A DNA stretch of 56,773 bases from sequence record SRR2962707_1170, one strand, 5' to 3'. A program made the translations under genes and the position numbers. A model generated the notes under the pieces. The model did no database searches. It was not told where the DNA came from and saw only the letters and a list, made by a program, of their open reading frames with translations. This document shows positions 2,350 through 24,479 of this stretch, one piece after another; position 1 is the stretch's first letter; each line of letters begins with the position of its first letter.

Positions 2350-3633
2350 TTAGTAGTTCGATTTAATCTGAACGCAGGTGCTTGTTGCTGTGTTGTACAT
2401 GCCGCAACCAAGGTCTTTCCAGTCGGACTTCAAAACAGCCGACTCTGGCAGGAAGTCTGTCCATGCATCGCCTGCGACTTCGGTCGTTTGGCTGATGATG
2501 TCGAATTGACCGTCAGCTTGGATTTCACCGATCAGAACTGGTTTCGCCAAGTGATGGTTTGGCAGCATAACCGCTGTACCACCTGTCAGGTTTGGATATT
2601 CCTGACCGTACATTGCTGTGCGAACGGCGTCGACGTCTGTGGTGCCAGCGGTTGTTGCCGCGTTAACCCACATGTTGAAGCCGATGAAGTGCGCTTCCAT
2701 TGGATCGTTTGTCACACGCTCTTCGCCCATGCGGGCTTTCCAAGCTGTAACCCAATCGGCGTTCACAGGTGCGTCCGCAGATTGGAAGTAGTTCCAAGCG
2801 GCCAGGTGGCCAACAAGGTTGGATGTGTCCAGACCGGACAGTTCTTCTTCACCAACCGAGAAGGCAACCACTGGGATATCGTCAGCAGAGATACCGGCGG
2901 CAGCCAATTCTTTGTAGAAGCCGATGTTTGCGTCACCGTTGATTGTCGAAATAACGCCAACCTGTTTGCCGTCTGCGCCCAGTGCGACAACGTCAGAAAC
3001 GATTGTTGCCCAGTCAGAATGGCCGAAAGGTGTGTAGTTTACGAAGATATCTTCAGCTGGAATGCCTTTAGACTTCAGGTAGCTTTCCAGAATGTTGTTT
3101 GTTGTACGTGGGTATACGTAGTCGGTGCCGAGCAATGCGAACTTTTCTACACCAAGCTCTTCCAGGAAGTAGTCAGTTGCTGGGATCGCCTGCTGGTTCG
3201 GAGCCGCACCTGTGTAGAAGACGTTTTTGGAGCTTTCTTCGCCTTCATACTGAACTGGGTAGAACAGCAGACCGTTCAGTTCTTCGATAACCGGCAGAAC
3301 CGACTTACGAGAAACCGAAGTCCAGTTGCCGAACATGACGTCGACTTCGTGAACTGTCAGAAGTTCACGTGCTTTTTCAGCAAAAAGAGGCCAGTCGGAC
3401 GCAGGGTCAACGACGACGGCTTCCAATTCACAGCCCAACAGGCCGCCTTTGGCATTTTGCTGCTCGATCAGCATCAACATGGTGTCTTTCAGAGTTGTTT
3501 CTGAAATGGCCATGGTGCCGGAAAGTGAGTGTAGAACGCCCACTTTGATCGGGCAGTCCGCTGCAGCGGCAATACCTGTCCCTGCGAGCAGGGCGAGTGT
3601 TGACGTAGCAATCAGAGATTTGAACGATTTCAT
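2350..3633 (-). CDS. urtA: Urea ABC transporter substrate-binding protein UrtA
   Basis: IKVGVLHSLSGTMAISE, VVDPASDWPLFAEKA, WTSVSRKSVLP, FYPVQYEGEESS and GAAPNQQAIPA are hallmark UrtA/FmdD segments; signal peptide present. Confidence 0.95.
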   Translation of the reverse strand: MKSFKSLIATSTLALLAGTGIAAAADCPIKVGVLHSLSGTMAISETTLKDTMLMLIEQQNAKGGLLGCELEAVVVDPASDWPLFAEKARELLTVHEVDVMFGNWTSVSRKSVLPVIEELNGLLFYPVQYEGEESSKNVFYTGAAPNQQAIPATDYFLEELGVEKFALLGTDYVYPRTTNNILESYLKSKGIPAEDIFVNYTPFGHSDWATIVSDVVALGADGKQVGVISTINGDANIGFYKELAAAGISADDIPVVAFSVGEEELSGLDTSNLVGHLAAWNYFQSADAPVNADWVTAWKARMGEERVTNDPMEAHFIGFNMWVNAATTAGTTDVDAVRTAMYGQEYPNLTGGTAVMLPNHHLAKPVLIGEIQADGQFDIISQTTEVAGDAWTDFLPESAVLKSDWKDLGCGMYNTATSTCVQIKSNY

Positions 3634-3882
3634 AAGACTTGTGTCCCCAAGGTTACGCCACGAAATACGGCACGCCCGCCCCCTTCAAATAGGGAGTCCG
3701 GAGTGCTACGTATGAAATTCGCAGCAGTTCTGTTGCAGTCGTGCAAAGGGTAGAATCTGCCAGGATGTCCCCTTTGCGCGGCATAATATGCGGAGACGTT
3801 CCTCCCCGCGCTGTCGGGAATATCGTTCTGAGCGGAAACCAGCGAGAGATTCCCTATGAATCCCGTGGTGACGCGGAAGCAT

Positions 3883-3929
3883 TGATTTATTTTTGAGCGC
3901 GCGCGGAAAATGTGCTCAAAAAAAGTGCA
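3883..3929. promoter_or_regulatory. Tandem NtrC-like binding sites upstream of urtA
   Basis: TGCTC-AAAAAAA-GTGCA (3913-3929) fits TGCAC-N7-GTGCA. A weaker site TGATT-TATTTTT-GAGCG (3883-3899) sits 30 bp away. Nitrogen control of urea uptake is expected. Confidence 0.6.
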
Positions 3930-4055
3930 CCATATGTTTCGATTTCTTTGTGCAACATCGAAAGTGACTAGAAATGAGCATGTCAGAGTCCAGCTGTATG
4001 CCGATTGTGCGAAGTTGAGACGGTATTCATGATCTGAAGGCACCGGACGCTTTTA

Positions 4056-5657
4056 TCAGATAAGGTCGCGCACGTTTCGAAGCATCCCGACGGTTCTGAG
4101 GGTTCTGACAGGGTACAGCTCATCATTCACAAATCGGTCCAACGAAAAACCTGGTTCAATCTTTTCGAGTTTTTTGGCTGTTGCTTGGGCTTTGTCCATT
4201 TCGCCTTGTTGGGCGTATAAGGCGAGCAAGTGTCGATGAGCCGGGCGCAGGAACGGCGCAGCTCTGGCGGCGGCCTCGCCTGCAGCAATGGCCTCAACGG
4301 GGCGATTACAGGCAATGTTCACGACGCAATTGTTTACTTCCCACCATTGGCGGAAAGGGGAGAACCGCGCGATGTTACGGGCGAGGTTCGAGTTCTTAAG
4401 CGCTTCTGTATAGTCACCCCTTCGCATCTGAGCTGTCGCCAGCGCGTTCCAGGCAAAGGCATTCGCCGGGTTTTGTGCCACCGCTTGTTCGGCCAATTCC
4501 CAGCCACCTTCTGCGTCGCCCAACCCCATAACACGGACCTGACTGATCAGGGCCTGCGCCAAAGTATTGTCCACCGCGCTTTCCATTGCCGCTTGATTGA
4601 GCTCCGCGGCTTCATCGCGCAGGGCTTCGGGATTGTCGGAATGCAGTTCGATAAGCTGAATCATCCGCGCCAAACTGCGCCAAGCGAGGTAGACCGGGTT
4701 TGGGTCACATTCATGGGCTTGTTTCAAGAGCCCGTTGGCTTCGTTCAGTGAAGACGGATCAAAACTGAACATGCGGTATAGCGCCAACCGCGACAAAGCC
4801 GTGGCCCGGGCCTCGGGACGGCAATTCTCAATCACTAAAGGAATTTTGCTCAGGACCCGGTCGGCAACGTCAAACACCATGGCGGCGGTTGGTTCTGCCG
4901 ACTTCAATATGTCGTCATGTGCCTCAATCTCATGAATGCGGGAATGCATTATTCGGCCGGTCGGCAAATGTGACACTTTCAGAAAGACATTGGCCTTGCC
5001 GTCGCTGTCGATCAGGTTGCAGCAAATTTCGATGTCTTCCGTTTGTTTAGATGTTGGCTCTGTCGACGTTCCAGTGCTGCGCCACGCGCGTACATGTTCC
5101 GCTACGTTTTGACCAATTTGGTTGGCCAGAATGTCCCCCAGCAGTGCAGAGGTTTCACTTTCGTGGACTTTGGTGACGCAGCGAATATCTAATCCGGTGA
5201 TTTCGCGGGGGCGGGCAGACTCCAGCCGTTTTTGAAATCGGGATCTTTCTGATCGGAGCCATTCTTCGAATTCGGGATCACGCACATCCATACCTTCGAG
5301 AAGCTCCAGAGGCTCGTCGGAAGCAAAATCGCCCTGAAGCACATCTACAATGACCTGCTTGGGATCAAGTGAGATCGAGTTACGGTCGCCTGACAGAATG
5401 TTCTCATAAACAGGGGCCGTTTTTCTGATTTTGGCGAGCGCCTGTCGCAAATTTGCTCCGGCGTGTTCGGGGCCGAACCGGCTCCAGAGCTTGTCTTCGA
5501 TCCAGCGGCGGGATCGGTGCATGCCGGGACTTAAGGCCAAAAGCGCAAGCAGTGCTTGGTTTTTTGTCCCAACAGGGGTCACGTCTGTCCCGTCATTTGC
5601 AAACGAAGAAAATGAGCCAATCAAATTGATGTGCAATAGATTATCATCGTTGCTCAT
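4056..5657 (-). CDS. SARP/AfsR-like winged-helix transcriptional regulator with C-terminal TPR repeats
   Basis: N-terminal KNQALLALLALSPGMHRSRRWIEDKLW...ANLRQALAKIRK (OmpR/SARP wHTH) and LLEGMDVRDPEFEEWLRSER; C-terminal TPR-like helices (AEQAVAQNPANAFAWNALA). ATG 5657 preferred over TTG 5690. Confidence 0.8.
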   Translation of the reverse strand: MSNDDNLLHINLIGSFSSFANDGTDVTPVGTKNQALLALLALSPGMHRSRRWIEDKLWSRFGPEHAGANLRQALAKIRKTAPVYENILSGDRNSISLDPKQVIVDVLQGDFASDEPLELLEGMDVRDPEFEEWLRSERSRFQKRLESARPREITGLDIRCVTKVHESETSALLGDILANQIGQNVAEHVRAWRSTGTSTEPTSKQTEDIEICCNLIDSDGKANVFLKVSHLPTGRIMHSRIHEIEAHDDILKSAEPTAAMVFDVADRVLSKIPLVIENCRPEARATALSRLALYRMFSFDPSSLNEANGLLKQAHECDPNPVYLAWRSLARMIQLIELHSDNPEALRDEAAELNQAAMESAVDNTLAQALISQVRVMGLGDAEGGWELAEQAVAQNPANAFAWNALATAQMRRGDYTEALKNSNLARNIARFSPFRQWWEVNNCVVNIACNRPVEAIAAGEAAARAAPFLRPAHRHLLALYAQQGEMDKAQATAKKLEKIEPGFSLDRFVNDELYPVRTLRTVGMLRNVRDLI

Positions 5658-5721
5658 ACGGCCGGTTCCAAAAAACTGAATGTCGGTCAAAGACTAGCAT
5701 CGACTTTTGATTGCGGCAAAC

Positions 5722-5740
5722 TGCGTGAATTTTGCGTAAA
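5722..5740 (+). promoter_or_regulatory. 11-bp-period direct repeat TGCGT(G/A)AA x2 in the regulator/PAP2 divergent promoter
   Basis: TGCGTGAA-ttt-TGCGTAAA; the same core occurs three times at 9205-9231. Confidence 0.4.
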
Positions 5741-5823
5741 ATCGTCAAGACGAATGAAATTGGGTTTTGACCTTGTCTCTACCTAACGTCACCTTAGTGT
5801 TAAATCAAATTTTTGGAGGATGC

Positions 5824-6927
5824 ATGCCACGTTTGGGAGTTGAGGGTGTTGAAGGTGTTGAGGGCGTAGAGGGTGTTGAGGGCGTAGAGGGCGTTGAAGG
5901 CGTCGAGGGTGTCGAAGGCGTAGAGGGAGTTGAAGGCGTCGAAGGTGGACGAGGCGCTTCAGGACTTTTGTCGAGCGCCCTTGGACGGGCCCGCGATGGC
6001 ACCGCACGTTATTGGGACGGATCCGCATCCCGTATTCCAAACAGCACAGGGCGTTCCAGCTGGGATGCTTTCCGCAAACTCGCTCCAAAACCACGCATGG
6101 CGACGACCGATCAAACGGTTCAGGGGTGGTTCAACGTTGCTTTGAACAGTTCGTCTGCGGCTAACACCGAAGGTCAGTTGGTACTTGGCTCAAATGCTGT
6201 CGTCAGCCTGCGCAAGCCGTCTGATGCCTTCCTTGCAGAAAAACAATTGGCGTATCTGCGCAGTGCCGCGGATTTGCGCATGGACCGCCTTGCCGAAATT
6301 CGTGTGCAAACTGGAAATATTCTGTCCTTCTTTTCGACGGTCGGACATATGTCCCGGCAGGCTACTCCCTGGAGTTTGGCGGTGGCCTATGCCGTGTTGC
6401 GCTTGTGTCGGCATGTTGAAATGCCGTTCAAGTTGGGTTTTGACGTTGCCCGTCCGATCGCCATGTCGTTTGAAGTACAGCCGATCATTCAGACGCCGGG
6501 CCATGGGGCTTGGCCCAGTGGACATGCGACAGAGTCCTTTGCTTTGGCGACGGTTTTGACCCGGTTGTTTGGTCAGGATAGCTTTGATGCGCAGCAGGCG
6601 GTGACAGAACAAAACGAATTGATGCGCCATGCCGCACGCATCGCCATGAACAGAACCGTGGCCGGGGTGCATTTCCCAACAGACAGCATGGCTGGTGCGG
6701 TGCTTGGGCTGACATTAGGCGAGGCGTTGGTCCGGGTGCTTGATGGCGAAGATACGACCCCATCGAGAACCTATTTTGGGGACAGCTATGACGGCGACTT
6801 TAATCTGTCTTTATTTGGCGCGGCGCTAAGCGATGCTTCTATTATCGAAACGCGTCCCGTTGGCATGCAGATCGACGTGCCGGATTGGCTGCGTCGAATG
6901 TGGGATGAAGCCAAGCGCGAATGGTAA
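5824..6927 (+). CDS. PAP2/vanadium-haloperoxidase-fold protein with N-terminal (GVE)12 repeat
   Basis: GGAGGA RBS at 5815-5820 before ATG 5824. All three phosphate/vanadate-binding motifs are present: KLGFDVARP (KxxxxxxRP), WPSGH, and NRTVAGVHFPTD (RxxxxxHxxxD). Confidence 0.85.
   Translation: MPRLGVEGVEGVEGVEGVEGVEGVEGVEGVEGVEGVEGVEGGRGASGLLSSALGRARDGTARYWDGSASRIPNSTGRSSWDAFRKLAPKPRMATTDQTVQGWFNVALNSSSAANTEGQLVLGSNAVVSLRKPSDAFLAEKQLAYLRSAADLRMDRLAEIRVQTGNILSFFSTVGHMSRQATPWSLAVAYAVLRLCRHVEMPFKLGFDVARPIAMSFEVQPIIQTPGHGAWPSGHATESFALATVLTRLFGQDSFDAQQAVTEQNELMRHAARIAMNRTVAGVHFPTDSMAGAVLGLTLGEALVRVLDGEDTTPSRTYFGDSYDGDFNLSLFGAALSDASIIETRPVGMQIDVPDWLRRMWDEAKREW
5836..5943 (+). repeat. 12 x 9-bp coding tandem repeat (Gly-Val-Glu), synonymously diverged
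   Basis: Units gga-gtt-gag, ggt-gtt-gaa, ggc-gta-gag, ggc-gtc-gag and others vary only at third codon positions. Confidence 0.95.
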
Positions 6928-6981
6928 TTTTTGGTTTGTAAGAGCAGGCCCGTCTTTCCCCAGCCTGCGAGTTGTGAGTAC

Positions 6982-7012
6982 GCGGAGCGCATTAAGTGCG
7001 CTCCGCTTTTTT
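6982..7012 (+). terminator. Rho-independent terminator between the converging PAP2 and S8 genes
   Basis: GCGGAGCGCA-ttaag-TGCGCTCCGC followed by TTTTTT. Confidence 0.8.
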
Positions 7013-7013
7013 C

Positions 7014-9062
7014 TTAAGCGCGGCGTTTTCGGGTTCCGTTACCTGGGGTTCCGTTACCTGGGGAAAGGGTGATGTGGCCAAGCCTTGATTGCATGTCGTT
7101 GGGAACAGCCGTCCAGTGCAGTTTTGTATCGTCCAGATCGTCGACATGGGCAGGACCGTTCGTCTTGATCTTAGAGTGAGACAACGCCAAAAAACGTGTC
7201 AGCCGGGCGGCGGAAGCTGAAGTTCCGTTGATGGGCCGGATCGACCCTGTGTAGGTGCCACTTGCCAAGACGCCTCTGAGCGCGGACCCGTCCTCGGCCA
7301 CTGAAGAAAGTGTTGGACCTGCCACGCTCCAGTCGCTGCCCTCTGACGTGTAATAGGCCGGAGACACTTTGCGCCCTCCGTTGGACAGGCGGGTCGCCCC
7401 GACGGTGAACACCTGCCGGGATGTCGCTGTTGTCAGGGCAGTGTGCGTGCCGGTCCTCTTGATAGAGGAATTTTGGGCCAAACCTGTATTGTCCAGCATG
7501 TCGCCGTCCCATGCCCAGGCCTGAGGGGAATCGAAATAGGATTGCCGTCCCCGCTGGCGGAACTCAGGCAAGCTGTCTCCCCTTTGGATTTGCAGTGTGA
7601 CGCTAACCGGTGATCCGGACTTCGACTTGGTTGATATCGTCCATTTGCCCGAATTGGCTTGGGGCGCGCCGGCAGCGAGGTCGCCTGTCGCACAAAGCGC
7701 AATAGCGTAATAGGGTTTTGCGACGGTTGTCGCGTCCAAATTGCGTTCAGGTACATGATACAGTCGAGCTACCGGACCAATGTCCGACACCAATGTCCTA
7801 ACGCTGCCTTCGGGGATACTGTCGAAGCCTGAGGAATATCCATTCGGATCCGCCAAAGAGATGTCAAAATCAGCGGTGCTTTGTGCGCTTCGAAGCTCCA
7901 CATAGCTTGGCGTAAGATCATCAGGTTGAGCGCGCCAGTCAATGCTTGCGGTATCCACCTGTTCTGACATTTTCAGTTGCGCCACTTGGCGGGACCGTCT
8001 GTTGTTGCCAAAGGCCCAAACAATGCGGACGGGTTGTCCCGTCAGGGTTTGCCAAGCCTCCGCTTCCTTTGTGATTTGGTATTCGGCAAAGCGTGTGCCG
8101 TCTTTGGGGCCTGCCAACATACCGAGGCTGATGTTGACGACCACAGCGCTGGATGGATCAATTGTGCGGGCCTGCTGCAAAATCCAACGGAGGCCCTGAA
8201 CGAGGTAGTTTTCGAACTGCGTTCCTGAGGTGTCCTCTACAGCCATCGCAGGAAGCTGAACCGCCAACAATGGCCAGTTCCGGGTTGGGTCTTTTGTGTC
8301 CAGCGGGTCTGCCCCGCCGGCAATGTCCAGGATGGAGGTTCCGTGACTCGCCGAGAACTCAACAGAGCGATGATCGGTTACACCGCTCAACGAATTGTTT
8401 AGCCCATTATAAAGTGCGCTTTCGTCAATAGTTGGCGTGCGTATCATCCGATTAATGTCTGAATGGGACAAGATGGTGCCGGATTGCACTGTTTTGTCAT
8501 TGTTGCCGGTTAACGTTTCTTGGGCTTGGAGCCACACGGCATGAAACCGCGAGCTGTTCTTTCCGTTTTTGAGATTCTGACGCCGGAACCTGGCGTTCAG
8601 GAAGCCGATGCCATCGTCGATTACCGCGACGATTGGTTGTCCCTTGGCCCATTCAGGGACAGACGGGGATGATTGTTCGGTATCACTGTTCCTATGGGGT
8701 GATGCAATCGGCGAGGCAGGGCCAACGTCAATGACGTCAAATAGATGCGCGTGGTCCGAATACGGGGTACCTAATTTTCGATAGGCAAAATACTCATCTG
8801 GCAAATCCAAAGCATCAGCCGCGTTCTCAATCCGGGCGACAAGATCGGAGTAGTCTTGCTCGGGCATCAGGTAGTCAGATTGGGTGTCTTCAATCAGTTG
8901 CCGTAATTGTTGTCGTGCTGTTGACCTGTCGAGGCCTTTAAGACGCAAGAAAATTGCCTCGAATTTTGGGGTTTCTGTTGGTCGTGAGTCCGTTAAACGG
9001 CCCCAATCAAGGTATGGATCCCAGAATTCCATGGGGCGCGGTGCAGTCCAAGCCAAAGCCAA
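7014..9062 (-). CDS. S8 (subtilisin-like) serine peptidase, no signal peptide, large insertion in the catalytic domain
   Basis: Asp motif IVAVIDDGI, His motif SHGTSILDIAGG, oxyanion Asn WAFGN, Ser motif NGTSASA. AGGAGG precedes TTG 9062. Confidence 0.8.
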   Translation of the reverse strand: MALAWTAPRPMEFWDPYLDWGRLTDSRPTETPKFEAIFLRLKGLDRSTARQQLRQLIEDTQSDYLMPEQDYSDLVARIENAADALDLPDEYFAYRKLGTPYSDHAHLFDVIDVGPASPIASPHRNSDTEQSSPSVPEWAKGQPIVAVIDDGIGFLNARFRRQNLKNGKNSSRFHAVWLQAQETLTGNNDKTVQSGTILSHSDINRMIRTPTIDESALYNGLNNSLSGVTDHRSVEFSASHGTSILDIAGGADPLDTKDPTRNWPLLAVQLPAMAVEDTSGTQFENYLVQGLRWILQQARTIDPSSAVVVNISLGMLAGPKDGTRFAEYQITKEAEAWQTLTGQPVRIVWAFGNNRRSRQVAQLKMSEQVDTASIDWRAQPDDLTPSYVELRSAQSTADFDISLADPNGYSSGFDSIPEGSVRTLVSDIGPVARLYHVPERNLDATTVAKPYYAIALCATGDLAAGAPQANSGKWTISTKSKSGSPVSVTLQIQRGDSLPEFRQRGRQSYFDSPQAWAWDGDMLDNTGLAQNSSIKRTGTHTALTTATSRQVFTVGATRLSNGGRKVSPAYYTSEGSDWSVAGPTLSSVAEDGSALRGVLASGTYTGSIRPINGTSASAARLTRFLALSHSKIKTNGPAHVDDLDDTKLHWTAVPNDMQSRLGHITLSPGNGTPGNGTRKRRA

Positions 9063-9204
9063 TTAACATCCTCCTGATTTCGTACCTGTTCAAATAGCGT
9101 CCAGTGCTCAATTTGCGGAACTAAGCATCAGTTACACCGAGAGCTGCACAACTATGGCGCGTAAATGTCAGTCTCGAAAAGAAAATTTTTCTATTCCGCT
9201 AAAT

Positions 9205-9231
9205 TTCACAAACGATTCACTGAACATTCAC
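9205..9231 (-). promoter_or_regulatory. Three GTGAA direct repeats (TTCAC on +) at exact 11-bp period in the S8/VHPO-like divergent promoter
   Basis: TTCAC at 9205, 9216 and 9227. Confidence 0.5.
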
Positions 9232-9347
9232 GGGCGGGAGTGAGGCATGTCGTAGGGTAACTTCACGAATAACAATGAAAGGCTGGAAGGCGGCGCAGTT
9301 TCTCCATTCTGTCGAGCGATACTGCAGTAAAACTTCCAAGGCAAAAA

Positions 9348-10562
9348 ATGGCAAAAATTTCTGATCCAGCGATGACGTATATGTGCGCCGATGAAGGTAA
9401 AATTGTTTACTTGCCCAAGACTGCTGTGCGGCGCGATGGTGCGAGCTGCGCAATGGATGCCCAAACTGCAAAGATGACCGCTGGCCTTGCGGAAATGTAT
9501 TTGTCCGGGGTGTTGAGTGACACGCCGATTTCGGTCGTTACTGGTCGGTTCATGAAGGATCAGGAAGTTACTCTGGAGCACCTTTTTGAACAGGTTTCCC
9601 GCGTGTCGCAACTTTGCTCGGTTGACGTTTCTGCCGCGGACGATTTCAAGGAACGCGCGTTATCGGGTCCGCTTAGTGGTGAGACCTCTTTGCGCAGACG
9701 GGCGCTAGTGGCCCGGCATGCCGGATTTTTCTCAAAAAACGCGGATCAGATTACACCCAAATTCGTTGTCGACAAAGCTCGCACATTAACGCCCGGTGCC
9801 CCTATGCTTGTCCTGCTCGACACGTTGCTGAGCAAAGGCGTTCCCTTTAATCCGGAATTTGAAAATTATTTGAGCAAAGGGCTCATCCAAGGCTCAATGC
9901 GGAAGCTTATTCACGTGACAAAAATGAAGATGTTGCGAGTTGCGCGCTCCCGGCGCAAGTCGATGCGGCCAAGTGTTTTTGCCTCCTTGGTCGCTATGCA
10001 AGAGTGCAATCAGGCGGAAATGGTTTGTCCTGCGAATATTGATGTTTCGGCGGGCCTTGAATGCCTAAAGACCTTCGCTCCCGATGTTTTGGCCAGTGTC
10101 GCAGAATGGAACCGAGTGAACGGCGCTGCAGGCCAGACGCTTTGGTCCGCAGAAGGGCATGCCCAGATCGGGTGGAGCCCCTTTGAAATGGAGGCCAATT
10201 ATATGTTGCCCCGAAAACCAGAGTTAAGCCTTCAAGGGGCGCAGGACGCCCAATTGGCCCACGCAGCTGTGGCCTCCGCTTGTGCCACCTTTATTTCGTT
10301 CATTTTTGACACCAGCGTTGAAGTCACTGATTTCGGGGCCTTTGGTTTCAATGGATCTACTGATGATCTATTAGTTGGAACGTTAGAAGTTGCCAGAATG
10401 GTGCAATCAACAGAAGCCCGTTTCTACCCCCATGAAATTGAAATGGATTTTCAGTTGGGTCAAGATCTCGCGTTGTCCGTTCTGAGCCAGGCAATCCTGT
10501 CACCCTTGGTTGCGGCCAATCAATGTAGACCCAATTTGGATGTCGATCTGGCGACGGCTTGA
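9348..10562 (+). CDS. Divergent vanadium-dependent haloperoxidase-like protein, probably catalytically inactive
   Basis: AGLAEMYLSGVLSDTP, RRKSMRPSVFASLV, LAHAAVASACATFISFIFD and FQLGQDLALSVLSQ follow the order of VBPO segments (AEMxExYxMALLRDVP, HRRLRPE, SGHATVAGACVTILKAFFD, LGExIAIxILxE). The PSGH and RxxxGxH motifs are eroded. Confidence 0.55.
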   Translation: MAKISDPAMTYMCADEGKIVYLPKTAVRRDGASCAMDAQTAKMTAGLAEMYLSGVLSDTPISVVTGRFMKDQEVTLEHLFEQVSRVSQLCSVDVSAADDFKERALSGPLSGETSLRRRALVARHAGFFSKNADQITPKFVVDKARTLTPGAPMLVLLDTLLSKGVPFNPEFENYLSKGLIQGSMRKLIHVTKMKMLRVARSRRKSMRPSVFASLVAMQECNQAEMVCPANIDVSAGLECLKTFAPDVLASVAEWNRVNGAAGQTLWSAEGHAQIGWSPFEMEANYMLPRKPELSLQGAQDAQLAHAAVASACATFISFIFDTSVEVTDFGAFGFNGSTDDLLVGTLEVARMVQSTEARFYPHEIEMDFQLGQDLALSVLSQAILSPLVAANQCRPNLDVDLATA

Positions 10563-10632
10563 CCCTTTGTAGATACGTGCCCCGATTTGCCAAACCTGAT
10601 CACCGCCCTATCTTTTAATCAGGGGGTGCATC

Positions 10633-11040
10633 ATGAAGTATGCTTTTGTTTTTTGTATGATGGTCTTTATGCTTGGTCCGGCGGTTGCGCAGACTCGGGA
10701 TTCTGAAGGCCTTCAAAATGTCATTCGGCAGCAGTTTCAAGCGTTTCAACTTGAAGACGTCGGCAAGGCTTTTGAATATGCTAGCCCCAATATCCAGTCA
10801 ATGTTTGGCACAGCTGACAACTTTGGGTCGATGGTGCGACGCGGATATCCCATGGTCTGGGACCATGATCAGATCCGCTTTGGTAACTTGCGTGAAATCG
10901 ACGGAATCATTTGGCAAAAAGTTATTGTGACAGATGCGTCAGGCACGCTTCATATCTTGGATTATCAAATGATCCTGCAAGGTGATGCCTGGAAGATAAA
11001 TGGGGTTCAATACCTGCAAGCCCCTGAAATTGGAGCATAA
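10633..11040 (+). CDS. Secreted DUF4864-type (NTF2-like) protein
   Basis: Signal peptide; QNVIRQQFQAFQLEDVGKAFEYASPNIQSMFGTADNFGSMVRRGYPMVW ... WKINGV. Confidence 0.75.
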   Translation: MKYAFVFCMMVFMLGPAVAQTRDSEGLQNVIRQQFQAFQLEDVGKAFEYASPNIQSMFGTADNFGSMVRRGYPMVWDHDQIRFGNLREIDGIIWQKVIVTDASGTLHILDYQMILQGDAWKINGVQYLQAPEIGA

Positions 11041-11220
11041 AATCGACGTATCCGTTGAATAGAGAACGTTGGTTTTAAGCCCTGTTAACCCCTTTTTCCT
11101 AACTCTTTCCACGTCTGAGGCCAGCGCGCCTCGTTCGTCAAAACCGTAGCGACTTTGCTTTTTGATCGGGGTGCGTTTGCCACTGGTCCGGGTTTGATTT
11201 GGCTTTGGAAAGGGAATGCG

Positions 11221-13506
11221 ATGAATAAGGCGATTACCGATGGCGTGGTCCTGATGCCCACGGCGTTTGAGGCAGGGCTGGGGCAGTGGTCGAGTGGCGA
11301 CGGCGTACCCGGATCTGACACCTATCAGTCAAGCGGATCCGCCGCTCTTGTTCCCGCGGATCAGGATTTCGGGGCGTGTCTTGAATTGCAAAAAACAGAG
11401 TCCGTCCAAAGGCTGCGTTATATGGGAGAGACGCCCCTACTTGCAGGCTGTTACCTGCGGATCAAGGTGCGGATCAAAGCTGTTTCTGGAAATTTGCCGT
11501 CTGTGCGGATTGCAGGTTGGGCCGGGGCTGCGGGCGGGGGACATGTCAGCGGCGTACCCCAAGAGGGGTCGGTCACGGCGTTGACCAACTATGGCGAAGT
11601 GGTGGAGGTTTGCGCGATTGTTGGTGCCGGAAATCGCACCGGTGTTGATATGGTCTGGGGCGTGACGCCTATTTTTGGCCATTTTGGGCTGGACCTGACG
11701 GGCGCGACCGGTGGTGTGGTGCGCATCGACGATATTGTGATCGAAGATGTCACCCATGTTTTCCATCGGACCATGATGGATTGGGTTGATGTGCGAGATT
11801 TTGGTGCTGTCGGGGATGGCTCAACGAATGACAGCGCAGCCTTTGAAGCCGCCGACGCTGCGGCGCAAGGGAGAGATGTCTTTGTGCCCCGAGGTGTATT
11901 CCGGCTGAACAATAGCGTGACCTTTGACAATCGAGCCCGGTTCGAAGGCACAGTTTCGATGCCGGATTCTGCTGTGCTGAACATGACAAAGAGCTTTGAT
12001 CTTCCGACCTATATCGACGCCTTTGGCGACGAGGAACTGGCGTTTCGCAAAGCTTTTCAGGCGCTCCTGGACAATTCTGATCATGAGAGCCTGGATTTGG
12101 GTGGTCGGCGGGTTTCGATAACCGGGCCGATTGACATGCAGGCGGCCGTTAGCAATCGGACAGAGTTTGCCCAACGCCGGGTGATCCGAAATGGTCAGTT
12201 GCGGGCCGAGGATAGCGGCAATTGGGCCCCGACGGTGGTGACAAGTCAGGGAACCTATTCATCCAATGCCCAAAACCGCCTGAGTAACGTGAACAACGTG
12301 GCCAATATCGCCGTGGGCTCTTTGGTCGAAGGGACGGGCGTTGGACGTGAAGTCTATGTCCGTGCGCGCAATATCGCCGCGCAGGAAATCACCCTGTCTC
12401 AGCCTTTGTCTGACGCGGATGGCACGCAAAACTTCACGTTCACCCGTTTCAAATATATCTTGGATTTCAGCGCCTTTGATAAGCTGCAGGACTTTGAAAT
12501 TTCAAATGTCGAGTTTCAGTGCAGCGCGCTTGCCAGTGGGGTCATGCTGGCTCCTTCTGGCCGGATCATGCAGCTCAGGGACTGTGTTTTTAACCGTCCG
12601 GGTCACCGCGGGGTGACATCCATCGGCGAAGGTTGTGCCGGAATGCTTGTTGATCGTTGCAAGTTTCTAAGCGCTGAGAATGATTTGCTTGTCCAGAATC
12701 GCCAGAGCGTAGCTATTAATACCAATGTAAACGATGTAAAACTGCGCCATAATAGGGCGTCTCAGTTTCGGCATTTTGCTGTTATGAGCGGCACTTACTT
12801 GATGATTATCGGAAACCACTTCTTTCAGGGGGACAGTTCCTCCAGCGGCATACGCTCGGCAGGCATATTGCTGACGTATAAAGCCTGCAACGTCACGCTC
12901 TCTCATAACTATGTTGATAATTGCTTCATTGAATGGACAAATGAGCGAGATCCAAACCCAGATTTCACGACCGGTTTTGGGTTTTCTGGATTGACGATCA
13001 ACAGCAATGTTTTTCTGTGTTCAAACGTCGCGGATTGGTTCTCATTTATTGTGATCAAACCCTATGGCACGGGACATTATGTGAATGGGCTCAATGTGTC
13101 AGGAAATACATTCCGTACGGTGGGTGGTCAGATTGATCGAGTTGAGCGAGTAGACACTAGCTTTGCCAACCTGGATATGGATCGAATGCGCAAGATCGAG
13201 TTTTCTGGAAACACTTACCAGAATGTGGAATACGCCACCCGCAATCCTTTGACTTTGTCGCATTCGCAAAACTCAAATGCCTCGACATGGCAGATCGGAA
13301 CGTCGAGCAATTTACCGTTTGATGGCTATGCTCAGATTGTCGAGAGTGTTGTAGTTCAAGGTGGCGTGACAAACGGGAATTCAACGCAATTCGTCATGCC
13401 CTATGTGCGGACCCATCAAGGTGATGCGCAAAACCAAGTGCAATTGGTTTGGCCAACAGCCGTTCGAGGAGACGTGACACTTACCGTTCGATCTGACGAT
13501 CAATAA
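11221..13506 (+). CDS. Pectate-lyase-3/GH28-related right-handed beta-helix protein
   Basis: VDVRDFGAVGDGSTNDSAAFEAA motif followed by parallel beta-helix repeats. Start taken at MNKAITDG after a GGGA RBS. Confidence 0.8.
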   Translation: MNKAITDGVVLMPTAFEAGLGQWSSGDGVPGSDTYQSSGSAALVPADQDFGACLELQKTESVQRLRYMGETPLLAGCYLRIKVRIKAVSGNLPSVRIAGWAGAAGGGHVSGVPQEGSVTALTNYGEVVEVCAIVGAGNRTGVDMVWGVTPIFGHFGLDLTGATGGVVRIDDIVIEDVTHVFHRTMMDWVDVRDFGAVGDGSTNDSAAFEAADAAAQGRDVFVPRGVFRLNNSVTFDNRARFEGTVSMPDSAVLNMTKSFDLPTYIDAFGDEELAFRKAFQALLDNSDHESLDLGGRRVSITGPIDMQAAVSNRTEFAQRRVIRNGQLRAEDSGNWAPTVVTSQGTYSSNAQNRLSNVNNVANIAVGSLVEGTGVGREVYVRARNIAAQEITLSQPLSDADGTQNFTFTRFKYILDFSAFDKLQDFEISNVEFQCSALASGVMLAPSGRIMQLRDCVFNRPGHRGVTSIGEGCAGMLVDRCKFLSAENDLLVQNRQSVAINTNVNDVKLRHNRASQFRHFAVMSGTYLMIIGNHFFQGDSSSSGIRSAGILLTYKACNVTLSHNYVDNCFIEWTNERDPNPDFTTGFGFSGLTINSNVFLCSNVADWFSFIVIKPYGTGHYVNGLNVSGNTFRTVGGQIDRVERVDTSFANLDMDRMRKIEFSGNTYQNVEYATRNPLTLSHSQNSNASTWQIGTSSNLPFDGYAQIVESVVVQGGVTNGNSTQFVMPYVRTHQGDAQNQVQLVWPTAVRGDVTLTVRSDDQ

Positions 13507-13612: not shown

Positions 13613-14245
13613 ATGACAGGTTCGATTATTACGATCGCGCAGCAAAAGGGCGGATCTGGAAAGACCACTGTTGCGGCAAATCTAGCTATTGGGTTTCGTC
13701 AAATGGGCAAACGGGTGGCGTTGATTGATACCGATCCTCAAGGCAGTTTGGGGCGTTGGTTCATGTCTCGTATGCAACGGGATGAAACCTTGGTTGACGG
13801 TATGGATTTTTCAACGTCTTCGGCGTGGGGGATCACATATGAGTGTCGTAAACTTTGCGAAAACAATGACTTTGTCATTATTGATACCCCGCCCAAAGCG
13901 GATAGCGATCTGCGCCCGGCGCTAAGGGCCGCAGACTTGGTGGTTGTTCCGGTTTCGATGAGCCATGTTGACCTTTGGGCGACCGAAGGGGTGCTGGACT
14001 TGGCGCGTCGTGAGAATAAGCCCGTGATGGTCGTGATGAACCGGACTCGTCCGGGCACACGACTGTCCCGCGATATTGCCGAAGCGATGCAAGAGATCGA
14101 TGCAGAATTGGCCGAAGCTCAGTTGGGAAACCGGGTGGTTTATGCCGAAGCGCTGGGGCAGGGACTTGGCGCCAGTGAAGGTCCGCGCAGCCGCGCCAAA
14201 GATGAAGTCGCGGCACTGACAGCAGAGGTGGCGCATCGCGTCTAA
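13613..14245 (+). CDS. parA: Short orphan ParA/MinD-family ATPase
   Basis: Deviant Walker A QKGGSGKTT, IDTDPQGS and IIDTPP; 210 aa; no parB in the window. Confidence 0.88.
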   Translation: MTGSIITIAQQKGGSGKTTVAANLAIGFRQMGKRVALIDTDPQGSLGRWFMSRMQRDETLVDGMDFSTSSAWGITYECRKLCENNDFVIIDTPPKADSDLRPALRAADLVVVPVSMSHVDLWATEGVLDLARRENKPVMVVMNRTRPGTRLSRDIAEAMQEIDAELAEAQLGNRVVYAEALGQGLGASEGPRSRAKDEVAALTAEVAHRV

Positions 14246-14284
14246 CCGCGTTACATGAGCGCGACCCAAAAGAAAGGTGCCGCC

Positions 14285-15136
14285 ATGACTGACCTTGATG
14301 CTCTGCGATCGTTGATCCGGTCAGACAGCCAAAGCCGTGGTGCGCCGATTTCCAAGCTCGGCTATTTCTGTGCGCCGTTTCGTCCTAAGGATGGACCGTT
14401 CTCTGACAAGGTGATCAAGATCTATCGCGGATTGGCTGATGCGGCTGCGATGGACCGGCTTGCCCAGTATCATGACGATTACGCTGAGGCCCTGCGTACA
14501 GCTGGGGTTCCCTTACCTCACACCGAATTCCATTTGCTTGATGTTGATGGCGCCCGCGTGCCTTTGATTGTTCAGGATGCTTTGCCTGCCGACAGTATGA
14601 TGCGCCCGTTGATGCAATCCGGCACATTGGCCGAGACTTTGGACATGATGCAATCGGCCGGAGAGGTGATTGCTACTTTTTGGAACAATGCAGATCAATT
14701 CGAGACACGTATTGGCTTTCACCCGTCGATCCGAAACTTTGCGATCGTGGACGGCAAGGCGGTGTTCTTTGACACGTTCCCACCATTGATCCACTACTCT
14801 CGCGAAGAAATGGGACAGATGCTGCTTTTGTTTTCGGAAAAGCGTTTGATGCGTCTGGTGGGACCGTTCCTTAAGACCAAAGTGACGGGCATTCAGGATG
14901 AATGGTATTCCGCGCCCGAGACATTGGTCGGGCTGGTGGGCTCTGCCTGTCGGTTGCGGCCCGACGATGCCGAAGCCTATCTTGACTGGGGGCGCGGGTT
15001 TGCTAAATCCGCAATGCCGCGCTGGGCGGATGAGGCTTTGGCTGGTATGAAAGAGCCGCCACGCTTACCCGGCTATTGGACAGGGTTCCGAAAACTTCTT
15101 GGCTTGCAGGGTGAGCCAAACATCCGAACCGACTGA
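14285..15136 (+). CDS. DUF6206-type protein with protein-kinase-like fold features
   Basis: VIKIY (beta3 Lys-like), FHPSIRNF (catalytic-loop-like, no Asp) and FFDTF (DFG-like). Start 14285 has an AAAGGT RBS; 14255 is an alternative. Confidence 0.5.
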   Translation: MTDLDALRSLIRSDSQSRGAPISKLGYFCAPFRPKDGPFSDKVIKIYRGLADAAAMDRLAQYHDDYAEALRTAGVPLPHTEFHLLDVDGARVPLIVQDALPADSMMRPLMQSGTLAETLDMMQSAGEVIATFWNNADQFETRIGFHPSIRNFAIVDGKAVFFDTFPPLIHYSREEMGQMLLLFSEKRLMRLVGPFLKTKVTGIQDEWYSAPETLVGLVGSACRLRPDDAEAYLDWGRGFAKSAMPRWADEALAGMKEPPRLPGYWTGFRKLLGLQGEPNIRTD

Positions 15137-21519: not shown

Positions 21520-21806
21520 GGCCCGGTCGTCTTTGGCCTTGGCGTTTTCCGTCGATACGCGCCATGATTGTACCGTCATAAATGCCTTAGATTCTTAAGA
21601 TTTGAAGCGACTTTCCGCGTTTGCAAATCAAAAAATGGATGATTTTTGGATATCTCTGCATGGTTTTAAAGGGAAAATTCGATGTCCCCTAAATTCTGAG
21701 AAATCAGCAGAGTTTTACTTGGAAAACCACGGCCGGGGGCATACGCTGAAACTAAATATCAGATTTTAAGAACATTTTGTCTCAATTTAAATTGGAGGGT
21801 TTTCCC

Positions 21807-24479
21807 ATGCCCGAAACAAATTCGCCGAGTGAACTTACAAGTATTTTTAGTGTTTCAGGTACATTAACCGCAAACGATAGATTAGTGCCGGAGCCCGAGA
21901 CCGTAAGGTTAGAGGTTGGAACGTCTTACTATTTCCCAACAACAGTAGGGGCTAGGGCGCGCGTTGATGTCGCTTACGTTGGGGTTCCAAATACCACGAT
22001 CCACAATCTGAACGGTTTAGAGTGGGGCCTATATACGCAAGGCCGAACGTACAGCCCTGTTGTGTCAGGGGACCATGCAATCGGTCTCATCAAGTACAAC
22101 TACTCGAGTGCTTCGGTAGATTATGCGCTGAATGTCTATTCTTACGAAGATGACTATCTGGAAACCAACGCAACGACTGGCCTTTTGGAGCCCGGTGTTC
22201 CGCTCCAAGGTGTGATCGAAGTTGATGGTGATGTGGACAGGTTTCGCCTGTCGGTAGAGGCCGGGGGAACCTATGGGGTTGTGATGGAAGGCGTTTCTTT
22301 AAGAGAAGGCCTGTTGCTTGGGGTTTTTGATGCCGAAGGAAACCGGGTCGCTAACAGTTTTGGCGATTATTATTCAAATAACGAAGCAGAAGGCAGGACA
22401 GAATTTGTCGCCACAGAAACGCGCGATGTGTTTGTGGCTGTAACGAATGCTCGGCCAAGTGCTGACACCGGCGATATGCTCAACGGCAGCTACACGGTGA
22501 TTGTTTCGGAACAGCTTGATGATTTTTCGAACGGGACCGATACGACCGGGGTGTTGCCCATCGATGGGCAGGTGACTGGTGAGATCGAAGTGCCGGGCGA
22601 CGTCGACTGGTTCGCGGTCGAACTGGAAGCGGGGCAACGCTATCTCATTAATTTCGAGGGTGCAGCGTCCGGCATGGGAACGCTATTCGATCCCTACCTT
22701 AGGGGGCTTTTCAATTCCGATGGCACATACGCCGGTGGTGCTAACGACGATTCCGGGCTTGGAAGAAACAGTCGCAGTTTCGTGACGGTTGATCAAAGCG
22801 GGACGTATTATGTTTCAACCTCGGCTTATTCCAGTTCCAACGCATCTGTAGGTACATACACTCTAAGTATCGATCAGTTCGAAGATGATTTTGGCGATTC
22901 TGCCGACACTGCAGGGACCTTGGAGCCTGGCGCGTCCATTACAGGGACGATTGACCATCCGTATATTCCTGGGATTGGCATGGATCTCGACTGGTTTTCC
23001 GTGTCGGTCGAAGCTGGCAAAATCTACAGCTTCGAAGTCTCTACGCCAAGCGACCCGTCAGATCCTCCCGTCACTGCTTTAGTTGAGGGCATTTATGCCG
23101 CCAACGGTGCCTGGTTGATGTCGCCACAACAGGCGACTCAACTCTTCAGTGCGACAGAGGATGGCACGGTTTTTGTTTCGGTACAGGCAGCTTACATCGA
23201 AGACGTCGGACAGTACAATCTGGCCGCAAATGTCGTCTATGCCGCGAGTGAGGCAGAGTTGGTGTCGTGGGGTGTTGGCGAGGCCATTCGGCCAGTTAAC
23301 CTTCCAGAATATGTCATTTTGCGAGATGCTGTCGGCAGCCTTGGACGTGAGATCTTTGCCGGGACTGAACGGGCTGATATTATACGGGGGTTGGCGGGTG
23401 CGGATACAATTGTCGGCGGCGGTGGTGACGATGTTTTGGTCGGTGATGATGCTATTTCACCGGACCATCTGATTTCAGACGGCGCCCGGATCTATCGTGC
23501 GTATGACGCGATATTGGGGCGTGCTCCAGATGCACAAGGTCTTGATTATCACGTGTCACAGGGTGATTTATTGTCGCCATGGCAATTGGCTTTTAACCTT
23601 ATCAACAGCGCGGAATTTAACCGCGCTCATGGAACTTTGTCGAATTCAGAGTTCGTTGATCTGTTGTATACCAACCTGCGTGGCGAAGGGGGGGCTGGCG
23701 ATGACCCGGCCCGAGATCAGATGATTGCGCAACTCGATTCCGGGTGGGCCGATCGTGGATATATTGCTCAGGTCGTTTTCGACAGCACCGAGTTGAGGAA
23801 CAGGCTGGACGGTGCTGATTTCCAAAACATGTTACAGGACAATCCGGCCGCTGCCAGTGATGATGTCTTTGCCGTATATCGCGCTGTTCTGGGTCGTGAT
23901 CCCGACCTTGCCGGGTTTCAAAACTGGATTAAGGCGATGGGCGACGGTCTGGACTTGTCAGGGCTGGCAGAACGTTTCCTGTCATCGCGTGAATTTGCGC
24001 TGAACGGGTCGTTAGGTGACCAAGGCTTTGCCGAACATGTATTGGCGGGGCTCAGCGGTGATGCGGCGGGCGCGATAGATCTGGATACCGCCATTGCATT
24101 GTTGGAGGGCGGCGTTGACCGCGCAGATTTTGTGGCAGCGATGTCTATTCTCGCTGAACCCAGCGAGCTGAACACATGGATGCGCAGTAATGGCGTTGAT
24201 GATGTTCTGGTGGGCGGAACGGGTGACAACACTCTTTACGGTGGCCTTATGTCGGACCGCTTTGTCTTTGCCCCCAGCGATGGCGGCGAGCAACGGATCA
24301 TGGATCTGGAGGCATGGGACATCCTCGACCTGACTGGCTTTGGCTTTGCAGACATTGAGGGCGCGCGGGCGGCGTTTGAACAACAAGGCGAGGATTTGAT
24401 GTTCACGGACCAAGGTGTGTCTGTGCATATCAAAGATTTCGCTTTGTCAGCCCTAAGCGATGAAATCCTGATGATTTAA
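21807..24479 (+). CDS. Putative secreted surface protein: three PPC-like beta-sandwich repeats, DUF4214 domains, RTX-like Ca-binding repeats
   Basis: Three G.IE..GD.DWF.V..EAG..Y repeats; RIYRAYDAILGRAPDAQG and VYRAVLGRDPDLAGFQNW (DUF4214); GGGGDDVLVG and GGTGDNTLYGG; T1SS-like C-terminus. Confidence 0.75.
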   Translation: MPETNSPSELTSIFSVSGTLTANDRLVPEPETVRLEVGTSYYFPTTVGARARVDVAYVGVPNTTIHNLNGLEWGLYTQGRTYSPVVSGDHAIGLIKYNYSSASVDYALNVYSYEDDYLETNATTGLLEPGVPLQGVIEVDGDVDRFRLSVEAGGTYGVVMEGVSLREGLLLGVFDAEGNRVANSFGDYYSNNEAEGRTEFVATETRDVFVAVTNARPSADTGDMLNGSYTVIVSEQLDDFSNGTDTTGVLPIDGQVTGEIEVPGDVDWFAVELEAGQRYLINFEGAASGMGTLFDPYLRGLFNSDGTYAGGANDDSGLGRNSRSFVTVDQSGTYYVSTSAYSSSNASVGTYTLSIDQFEDDFGDSADTAGTLEPGASITGTIDHPYIPGIGMDLDWFSVSVEAGKIYSFEVSTPSDPSDPPVTALVEGIYAANGAWLMSPQQATQLFSATEDGTVFVSVQAAYIEDVGQYNLAANVVYAASEAELVSWGVGEAIRPVNLPEYVILRDAVGSLGREIFAGTERADIIRGLAGADTIVGGGGDDVLVGDDAISPDHLISDGARIYRAYDAILGRAPDAQGLDYHVSQGDLLSPWQLAFNLINSAEFNRAHGTLSNSEFVDLLYTNLRGEGGAGDDPARDQMIAQLDSGWADRGYIAQVVFDSTELRNRLDGADFQNMLQDNPAAASDDVFAVYRAVLGRDPDLAGFQNWIKAMGDGLDLSGLAERFLSSREFALNGSLGDQGFAEHVLAGLSGDAAGAIDLDTAIALLEGGVDRADFVAAMSILAEPSELNTWMRSNGVDDVLVGGTGDNTLYGGLMSDRFVFAPSDGGEQRIMDLEAWDILDLTGFGFADIEGARAAFEQQGEDLMFTDQGVSVHIKDFALSALSDEILMI

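Follow-up and report, generated by a model that had tools for sequence, protein, structure and literature searches.

The locus considered here raises a simple question: what are twelve perfect copies of the tripeptide Gly-Val-Glu doing at the N-terminus of an enzyme, and which of the adjacent genes have to do with them? It occupies positions 4,056 to 10,562 of a 56,773-bp stretch of sequence record SRR2962707_1170 (hereinafter the window, that is, the whole stretch that was analysed) and consists of four open reading frames (ORFs) forming two divergent pairs, an arrangement given in the initial annotation of this DNA and matched by the ORF coordinates. Comparison of homologous loci points to a core of three genes, encoding a regulator, a PAP2 enzyme and an S8 protease. 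Tentatively, and with more doubt than confidence, we propose that this is a self-contained cassette in which the array, processed by the protease, serves as a lineage-specific peptide code read by the tetratricopeptide repeat (TPR) domain of the regulator. The four genes are as follows.

4056–5690, minus strand: regulator gene (ORF list, 544 amino acids), divergent from the PAP2 gene
5824–6927, plus strand: PAP2 gene (ORF list and re-reading of the start; the listed ORF begins at TTG 5767)
7014–9062, minus strand: S8 protease gene (ORF list, 682 amino acids), convergent with the PAP2 gene
9348–10562, plus strand: fourth gene, encoding P0004 (ORF list, 404 amino acids), divergent from the S8 gene

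Repeat arrays of the PAP2 homologues

The listed TTG start of the PAP2 gene falls within a -35-like TTGACC, and the upstream region, as we read it, places the true start at ATG 5824. The array follows a short leader.

5824–5835, plus strand: start ATG and leader MPRL, with GGAGG upstream at 5815–5819
5836–5943, plus strand: (GVE)12 array, 12 identical tripeptide units encoded by nine different 9-bp DNA units

A tandem-repeat search puts the DNA of the array at 5835–5947. All deviations from the unit consensus (17 out of 17) are at the third codon position. The tail noticed in the initial annotation is real and is a 9-bp array.

Homologues were considered evaluable if their 5' region was present (79 sources), and they were translated upstream of the conserved PAP2 part. 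An in-frame low-complexity array at the PAP2 N-terminus is found in all 79, and in 77 it contains at least four copies of one unit of 3–6 residues. In L047, Ns hide part of the array, but GGGQ units can be recognised, and this source is counted among the 78 with a repeat array; the sole exception to arrays of units is L076, which has poly-Gly. Hence the suggested neighbourhood check, namely whether PAP2 homologues next to S8 genes carry a variable N-terminal repeat, yields 78 cases of 79. The family uses more than 45 different unit sequences, among them acidic, basic, neutral and aromatic ones; pentapeptide units also occur.

Tripeptide units: GVE, GHE, AYD, GYD, GGQ, NHQ, GHQ, SHQ, GNQ, NSQ, GVQ, GAQ, GTQ, GSQ, GPQ, GSS, GGK, AGK, TGK, GKM, AGR, GRS, NGR, AGH, GGH, GHH, GAH, NAQ, NAE, GGE, SGD, GYS, GGF, SNT, NHS
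Tetrapeptide units: GGGA, GGGF, GRGQ, GGSH, GGPG, GSGQ, GGNA, GGAG
Units from further genomes: TAM, GLS, NAL, GQH, GQM, GGAD, GGAH and the dipeptide GS

The DNA of the arrays is much less uniform. The exact-peptide runs of the 73 arrays whose ATG is clear comprise 2080 codons, of which 938 are synonymous variants of the column consensus; by construction, this count contains no non-synonymous differences. If one mismatch per unit is allowed, only about 19 deviant units appear, in about 16 arrays. The synonymous differences include switches between the TCN and AGY codons of Ser and between the CGN and AGR codons of Arg. Since the peptide stays constant as the codons drift, this pattern is the signature of purifying selection at the peptide level, which keeps the units identical.

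A unit may persist over considerable distances, as in the NSQ clade, whose PAP2 cores share the unit although their identity falls to about 69%. On the other hand, the units can differ at 79–82% PAP2 identity (AYD/GYD, NHQ/GHQ, AGR/AGQAGR), the first two pairs being from different genera, and in all ten of the ten genomes with two cassettes the units of the two arrays differ, as do GNQ and TAM. The four-unit array pattern was found nowhere else in the genome in both genomes tested. The periodicity starts at residue 2, 5, 8 or 11 in 67 of 73 arrays, and 71 of the 73 have A, P, S, T or G as their second residue.

In three Mameliella loci (L009, L010 and L012) there are nine, eight and nine copies of NSQ, respectively, at 95–97% identity of the PAP2 cores. 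As the copy number differs slightly at this identity, the arrays of these loci seem to change their length slowly, with the unit retained. Locus L097 (contig 4 of genome G063, approximately 4000–13000) has two complete, adjacent cassettes facing each other, one with a SAY/AYS tripeptide array and the other with a long (GS)n array.

Could the repeat simply be noncoding, with translation starting after it? This reading was ruled out by four observations: the ribosome-binding site and ATG upstream of the array, variation of the array at third codon positions only, a conserved helix at residues 47–60, that is, upstream of any internal Met, and in-frame arrays in 78 of 79 homologues, the remaining one having poly-Gly. 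The public PAP2 gene models mostly begin at an internal Met downstream of the array (MARDGT..., for example P0006, P0012, P0013, P0015 and P0024). As the models start past it, the array is missing from most deposited proteins, and only 11 of 138 new representative PAP2 sequences show it.

Composition and distribution of the cassette

A scan for PAP2 with one genome per species yielded at least 585 confirmed relatives among at least 600 pattern matches; the best 80 loci were used below. By tblastn, 78 of the 80 loci have the regulator (the other two are truncated by a contig end), 73 have S8 and two have P0004, weakly. All-against-all clustering of ORFs from the 80 loci and the window gave a consistent picture: PAP2 in 78 of 81, full-length regulator in 75 and S8 in 73. 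These are the only three widely shared real ORF families, the remaining large clusters being antisense shadows of the same genes. As judged by this gene content, the core cassette is formed by the regulator, PAP2 and S8. The co-regulated module proposed initially stands insofar as it rests on co-inheritance and shared promoter elements (see below); its four-gene composition does not, the core having three genes.

Seven loci have no S8 match. Four of them end shortly past PAP2, and the other three (L019, L020, L022) carry other genes at this position; in each of these three genomes a strong member of the S8 family is encoded elsewhere (E-values 1e-183 to 1e-199). The co-occurrence was then counted in 401 species-representative genomes of the order containing L005, at E-value cut-offs of 1e-30 for PAP2 and 1e-40 for S8. 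The PAP2 profile matches 109 genomes and the S8 profile 108: both are present in 106 genomes, PAP2 only in three, S8 only in two and neither in 290, without correction for phylogeny and with the singletons being mostly weak matches.

The gene order is less conserved than the gene content. The 52 loci in which S8 and PAP2 converge belong to close relatives; in 20 loci of more distant relatives the two genes share a strand, with S8 second, and in one of these, L071, their ends overlap. In a phylum-wide sample 14 of 401 genomes have a PAP2 match. Of the matches beyond the order-level sample, the five that were inspected all have both an array, with GGAS, GGF or GGA units, and an adjacent S8 gene. 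A profile search in 1.84 billion representative sequences found 872 proteins at E-values of at most 1e-30 and 2598 at most 1e-10.

The PAP2 enzyme

The PAP2 protein has a Pfam PAP2 match above the cut-off (E-value 1e-12). The catalytic motifs KX6RP, PSGH and RX5HX3D are present in this protein (P0002) as KLGFDVARP, PSGH and NRTVAGVHFPTD, and K203, R210, P211, P231, S232, H234, R277, H283 and D287 are invariant in 42 homologues. The folded part is as follows.

5953–6927, plus strand: folded PAP2 enzyme, residues 44–367, a junction helix followed by the catalytic core

The AlphaFold2 model, built with 42 full-length homologues as input, has a predicted local distance difference test score (pLDDT) of 89.1 and a predicted template-modelling score (pTM) of 0.85. 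Residues 1–43, that is, the leader and the array, are below 50 in pLDDT, and the tail is predicted to be disordered. In the conserved junction LSSALGRARDGTARYW, with the consensus LSSALGRARDG..W, residues 47–60 are helical and form the first helix of the fold, joined directly to the tail.

The best Foldseek matches of the model are class A acid phosphatases 7f18 and 7f17 (E-value 6e-6, template-modelling (TM) score 0.65 on the target, probability 1.00), and a profile search against the PDB sequences likewise favours this class. Structures of vanadium haloperoxidases (VHPOs) are far lower (4usz at E-value 5e-3, others at 1e-2 or above, TM scores 0.11–0.3). The Foldseek ranking thus shows neither a VHPO-type two-bundle architecture nor closest similarity to VHPOs. 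The protein had been described as having a PAP2/haloperoxidase fold; by the model, the fold is closer to that of the class A acid phosphatases. With PhoN, PhoC and the P. aeruginosa protein 7f17 it shares the invariant catalytic motifs and the best fold and profile matches. Unlike them, it lacks a signal peptide, exceeds them by about 100 residues, and has extra beta elements and an N-terminal helix, as well as a repeat tail, a dedicated protease and a regulator.

As to localization, the maximal Kyte–Doolittle value in a 19-residue frame is below 0.4 in the first 40 or so residues of all four proteins of the region, by a simple hydropathy test rather than a signal-peptide predictor. In the same scan, none of the four has a segment reaching 1.6, hence no signal-like or membrane segment was seen, in agreement with the earlier statement that neither PAP2 nor S8 carries a signal peptide. 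The PAP2 protein appears to be cytoplasmic and, as an enzyme, to belong to the class A acid-phosphatase type.

The S8 protease

The S8 gene starts at TTG 9062, 7 nt past AGGAGG. An ATG at 9069–9067 on the minus strand abuts the AGGAGG (region 9064–9075), but it belongs to another frame than S8 and would yield no more than a short ORF; the spacing of the in-frame TTG 9062 is better. The Pfam Peptidase_S8 match is above the cut-off (E-value 2.5e-11). The triad D149/H240/S615, in the Asp–His–Ser order of subtilases, does not vary among 35 homologues, in which, as regards the oxyanion Asn, N310 and N353 are conserved as well.

The model of the protein (pLDDT 90.5, pTM 0.93) consists of an alpha/beta prodomain-like N-domain (residues 1–120), a low-confidence linker (121–143) and a subtilase domain split by a beta-rich insertion at about 360–530, between the catalytic His/Asn and Ser. 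The top Foldseek match is CspB (4i0w, E-value 2e-21, TM score 0.72 on the target), followed by CspA and CspC, and other subtilases have E-values of 2e-6 or worse. The profile search against the PDB sequences produced the same ranking, with the Csp proteins first; a search of the PDB with the single sequence gave no match. Near the C-terminus of S8, in a low-confidence part of the model, a perfect 15-bp tandem repeat (2.2 copies, 7031–7063) encodes PGNGT-PGNGT.

The portion of PMC3567191 that concerns the Csp proteases describes a retained prodomain and a central jellyroll insertion, and removal of the N-terminal propeptide of pro-SleC by these enzymes, leading to its activation. The prodomain-like N-domain and the subtilase domain with a beta-rich insertion are common to both, and CspB, CspA and CspC lead the ranking by about 15 orders of magnitude. 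By the model, S8 has a Csp-like fold and is a structural homologue of the clostridial Csp germination proteases. It differs from them in its host, Gram-negative non-sporulating Alphaproteobacteria, in the identity, which is only 13–17%, and in the presumed substrate: pro-SleC is a cortex hydrolase, whereas here the substrate would be a PAP2 enzyme with a perfect repeat tail. The initial comparison to LanP and PatA is not upheld, as both the profile and the fold are Csp-like.

An S8 enzyme acting stepwise as a tripeptidyl peptidase was also considered. This idea is disfavoured by the Csp-like fold, there being no tripeptidyl peptidase among the listed Foldseek matches, and by the equal leader length in front of tetrapeptide arrays. 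The leader of Met plus zero, three, six or nine residues in 67 of 73 arrays speaks in its favour, and we retain it as a sub-variant only. Prediction of a complex between S8 residues 144–682 and the full-length PAP2 protein (score 0.12, mark 0.34) speaks neither way.

The regulator and the promoter repeats

In Pfam the regulator has TPR matches only; the TPR part is C-terminal (about 350–516), and the middle part is poorly conserved. The BTAD and Trans_reg_C domains were not detected in Pfam at E-values up to 1. The profile of 33 regulator homologues matches TPR proteins, and its residues 26–91 show a weak match to the ToxR DNA-binding domain (E-value 0.007). NCBI, UniRef and JGI give the name AfsR/SARP family to some of the homologues. 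These matches weakly suggest a SARP-like regulator with an N-terminal ToxR/OmpR-type winged helix in addition to the TPR part.

Both promoter regions contain short direct repeats.

5712–5749, plus strand: operator-like direct repeats CGGCAA/CGTGAA/CGTAAA/(CGTCAA) spaced by 10–11 bp, upstream of PAP2
5767–5772, plus strand: -35-like TTGACC, downstream of these repeats
9206–9232, minus strand: three GTGAA direct repeats (CGTGAA-N5-AGTGAA-N5-TGTGAA) with 11-bp spacing, towards the S8 gene

GT[GTA]AA pairs at 10–11 bp occur only three times on both strands of the entire window, at 5725 (plus strand), upstream of PAP2, and at 9231 and 9220 (minus strand), upstream of S8. The phased repeats claimed initially as shared by the two promoters are therefore the sole such pairs in the 56.8 kb. 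A strict search for promoter repeats of constant period gave no match, as 10- and 11-bp spacings alternate.

The homologous loci repeat this architecture: CGTGAA-N5-CGTTAA, often preceded by CGGCAA, with TTTGAC 25–35 nt downstream. TTTGAC is present in 28 of 48 PAP2 upstream regions compared with one of 48 controls, and CGTGAA in 26 compared with three. Of 77 loci, 36 have the strict pair of hexamers roughly 100 nt ahead of PAP2, and a comparable pair lies upstream of S8 in 15 of the 52 loci with convergent S8; elsewhere the strict pair has only 24 other matches on both strands of 1.16 Mb. We infer from these motifs that one activator binds direct repeats beside the -35 element and controls both the PAP2 and S8 genes.

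Direct repeats phased by about 11 bp just upstream of a -35-like element are typical of SARP operators. This arrangement and the database names of the homologues are the features in common with AfsR and DnrI. The differences from SARPs are the lack of BTAD and Trans_reg_C in Pfam, the proteobacterial host, and the lack of an attached biosynthetic cluster.

Possible functions of the array

The proposal that we tentatively put forward is as follows. A SARP-like activator, combining a winged helix and TPR, would bind the CGTGAA-type repeats in front of the PAP2 and S8 genes. The Csp-like subtilase would most likely cut the array off the enzyme, probably into units; cutting of the array by S8 is suggested by the likeness to removal of the pro-SleC propeptide by the Csp proteases. 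The array would then be a multi-copy ribosomal peptide precursor fused to an enzyme, and, since every unit is kept identical, the units probably matter individually, whether as released peptides or as a periodic ligand. Their sequence would be a lineage-specific code, most plausibly read by the TPR domain of the regulator encoded in the same cassette, and such a read-out could close a feedback or signalling loop.

Two covariation signals are weak hints of TPR read-out. The charge of the tail anticorrelates with the net charge of the TPR part of the regulator (Spearman r -0.30, p 0.018, n 64) and not with that of the catalytic part of S8 (r -0.10), these correlations being weak and uncorrected for phylogeny and for six tests. 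In the NSQ clade, the regulators are closer to each other than the PAP2 identity predicts (0.78 vs 0.69).

A number of observations weigh against the proposal. The tail charge correlates with that of the PAP2 core (r -0.31) just as it does with that of the TPR part. In the sister pairs L001/L002, L005/L006 and L033/L036, compared with same-unit pairs of equal PAP2 identity, a change of the unit is not accompanied by faster divergence of the regulator or S8. There is no conserved cleavage motif at the unit boundaries; the junction has the form H-[AVIPT]-[GDE]-[GSD] in 27 of 73 arrays. The Csp proteases are site-specific endopeptidases, as opposed to the presumed cuts every 3–4 residues. The ORF clustering of the 80 loci and the window revealed no exporter, importer or modifying enzyme conserved in the cassette, so an intercellular signal would need unlinked transporters. 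The fully conserved active site of PAP2 is left unexplained by a purely signalling model. Finally, cleavage by S8, release of the units and their sensing by the TPR domain are all steps that we infer.

The main rival, in our opinion unlikely but deserving the closest attention, is zymogen activation alone: the array is a pro-segment that silences or destabilises a potentially harmful cytoplasmic phosphatase and is removed by S8 in a single cut at the junction, after which the tail has no role. The Csp-like fold of S8 with its prodomain-like N-domain fits this well, given the precedent of Csp and pro-SleC in the corresponding part of PMC3567191. So do the full conservation of the PAP2 active site and the position of the junction helix directly after the array; and the nearest structural relatives are broad-specificity periplasmic acid phosphatases, yet the PAP2 protein has no signal peptide. 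However, a disordered tail that comes in more than 45 unit sequences is an unlikely specific inhibitor, and a mere pro-segment needs neither units kept identical amid codon drift nor different units in paralogues.

A rather improbable version of the peptide code goes further towards signalling. In it, S8 chops the array into tri- or tetrapeptides that are themselves the ligands of the TPR activator, making the system autoinducing and possibly acting from cell to cell, with PAP2 as a stoichiometric output. The unit sequence would then provide specificity, with dozens of orthogonal 'dialects' and two of them in some genomes.

We give similarly little credence to a docking tail, where the intact array is a multivalent ligand of the TPR superhelix of the regulator, as in a partner switch or an anti-activator, and S8 acts elsewhere or degrades the complex. 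TPR domains bind extended peptides, a periodic peptide suits a periodic binding surface, the regulator is the third invariant partner, and its TPR charge anticorrelates with that of the tail. But the TPR repeats of the regulator differ from each other, the covariation signal is weak, and this explanation does not account for the near-perfect co-occurrence of a catalytically intact protease with the array.

The initial annotation had considered a ribosomally synthesised and post-translationally modified peptide (RiPP) with a fused precursor; in this reading, the PAP2 enzyme would modify its own array by phosphoryl transfer or halogenation and S8 would release the natural product. An enzyme and a peptide in a single chain, a dedicated protease and, in one clade, adjoining homologues of vanadium bromoperoxidase (VBPO) are all consistent with such a pathway, and SARP-type regulators typically control secondary metabolism. 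We nevertheless find it improbable: units such as GVE, GGQ, AGR, GPQ and GGF have no common modifiable residue, the loci conserve neither a further tailoring enzyme nor a recognition element or exporter, and the VBPO homologue is missing from most loci and degenerate here.

Still less probable is a defence or conflict module, in which a toxic phosphatase gated by the protease causes abortive infection, with the hypervariable tail acting as a decoy for, or a sensor of, proteases of the invader. The patchy distribution (109 of 401 genomes), the hypervariability, and the combination of a protease, an effector and TPR recall defence systems. Yet PADLOC yields no families for the regulator, PAP2 and P0004, and for S8 only a marginal match of a C-terminal stretch to IetS (E-value 0.004); moreover, the neighbourhood is a housekeeping one, and the cassette diverges in step with the host lineages and does not look mobile.

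A structural repeat, with a collagen-like triple helix or a polyproline-II bundle oligomerising the enzyme, can be practically dismissed. Many units are G-X-Y, and there is a weak Pfam Collagen match (E-value 1.5e-5, short of the curated cut-off). However, the G-X-Y pattern named initially, with its Gly in every third position, holds for GVE here and not for the family, where Gly-free units (NSQ, NHQ, AYD, SHQ, NAE, TAM, NAL), tetrapeptides such as GGGF and GRGQ, pentapeptides and the dipeptide GS occur and the tail is predicted to be disordered.

If the preferred reading, a protease-processed peptide code read by the regulator, is true, a cassette that is common yet has been overlooked uses a new way of encoding short peptides: they come as perfect arrays fused to an enzyme, are paired with a TPR regulator and owe their maturation to a type of protease hitherto described only in the germination of clostridial spores. 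The Alphaproteobacteria would gain a peptide-based specificity system comparable to the RRNPP and pheromone systems of Gram-positive bacteria, and the family would be a natural library of more than 45 orthogonal peptide–protein pairs. Even under zymogen activation, the Csp-type proteases are extended to Gram-negative bacteria, the public gene models systematically clip a selected, translated N-terminal feature, and the arrays are a clear case of peptide-level selection on a synonymously scrambled tandem repeat.

Comparison with known systems

Multi-copy precursors, such as yeast alpha-factor processed by Kex2, fungal precursors of the ustiloxin type and that of thyrotropin-releasing hormone, also have identical short units in one chain and are processed by subtilase-family enzymes. 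They are, however, secretory, with dibasic spacers and no fusion to an enzyme, whereas the units considered here abut and all components are apparently cytoplasmic. Borosins likewise combine a peptide and an enzyme in one polypeptide, but the borosin core is C-terminal, single and N-methylated, as opposed to an N-terminal, repeated and chemically heterogeneous array.

The RRNPP systems (Rap-Phr, NprR, PlcR) resemble the cassette in that a TPR regulator is encoded beside a gene for a short lineage-specific peptide, which is matured proteolytically, in part by subtilisins, and in that a genome may have several orthogonal pairs. There is no homology, and the cassette differs in the putative ToxR/OmpR-type winged helix, the lack of a secretion signal, the Gram-negative host, and units of 3–4 residues fused to an enzyme. 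A TPR receptor with an XRE-type helix-turn-helix or phosphatase and a secreted propeptide, which characterize RRNPP, were not found here, nor was any family match in Pfam or NCBIfam.

No curated family in NCBIfam or PADLOC covers the cassette proteins, and searches of full-text literature found no paper on this cassette or such arrays. Hence the earlier remark that no pathway of this composition has been described still holds: the parts come from known families, and their combination with the array could be matched to no described system.

The fourth gene

P0004 has no Pfam match. It is similar to a family of neighbour-gene products of about 500 amino acids (hhalign probability 97.4%, E-value 1.3e-11), and the profile of this family, P0004 included, matches VBPO 5lpc with an E-value of 2.5e-68. 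In the alignment, the motif-1 Lys is replaced by Ala in P0004, HPAYGAGHA by AQDAQLAHA and GVH by ARF, so that neither this Lys nor the first His of motif 2 nor the vanadate-binding His remains. The alignment therefore identifies P0004 as a degenerate VBPO homologue.

Homologues of about 500 amino acids are encoded beyond S8, in the same position as P0004, in 17 of 80 loci. Since the family is limited to these 17, P0004 is, by its distribution, an accessory of one clade outside the conserved core. The dead VHPO assigned to the module initially is thus confirmed as a degenerate homologue and removed from the core. In L056 (11582–13747) and L057 (11768–13816) the VBPO homologues beyond S8 are of about 700 amino acids and have intact motifs (HPAYGAGHA, RNMAGVH..D). 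These two, distant members of the family, are the only intact ones: in other family members, including close relatives of the window, the catalytic motifs are degenerate.

Terminator and neighbouring genes

The PAP2 and S8 genes had been described as converging on one terminator. A single hairpin is indeed present.

6982–7006, plus strand by its T-run: hairpin with an 11-pair G+C-rich stem (eight G–C pairs) followed by TTTTTT, between the two stop codons

Its sequence makes it a clear terminator for the PAP2 gene and only possibly one for the S8 gene, as the T-run is on the plus strand only.

The flanks of the region are ordinary genes. Upstream are the genes of a urea ABC transporter; an ORF of 137 amino acids (3630–4043, minus strand) between urtA and the regulator gene has no match in Pfam or NCBIfam. 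Downstream are genes for a DUF4864 protein, a pectate-lyase-like protein, ParA and a DUF6206 protein. The ParA-type partition ATPase (13613–15136, plus strand; NCBIfam ParA_partition, above the cut-off) precedes the DUF6206 protein, and, given this ATPase, the window may be part of a plasmid or chromid. Farther from the cassette are a TRAP transporter, regulators and RTX proteins. One of the latter, at 21777–24476, is an RTX/PPC/DUF4214 protein of 900 amino acids, and an ORF of 2745 amino acids (45091–53325, minus strand) is rich in RTX calcium-binding repeats and also has an H-type lectin domain.

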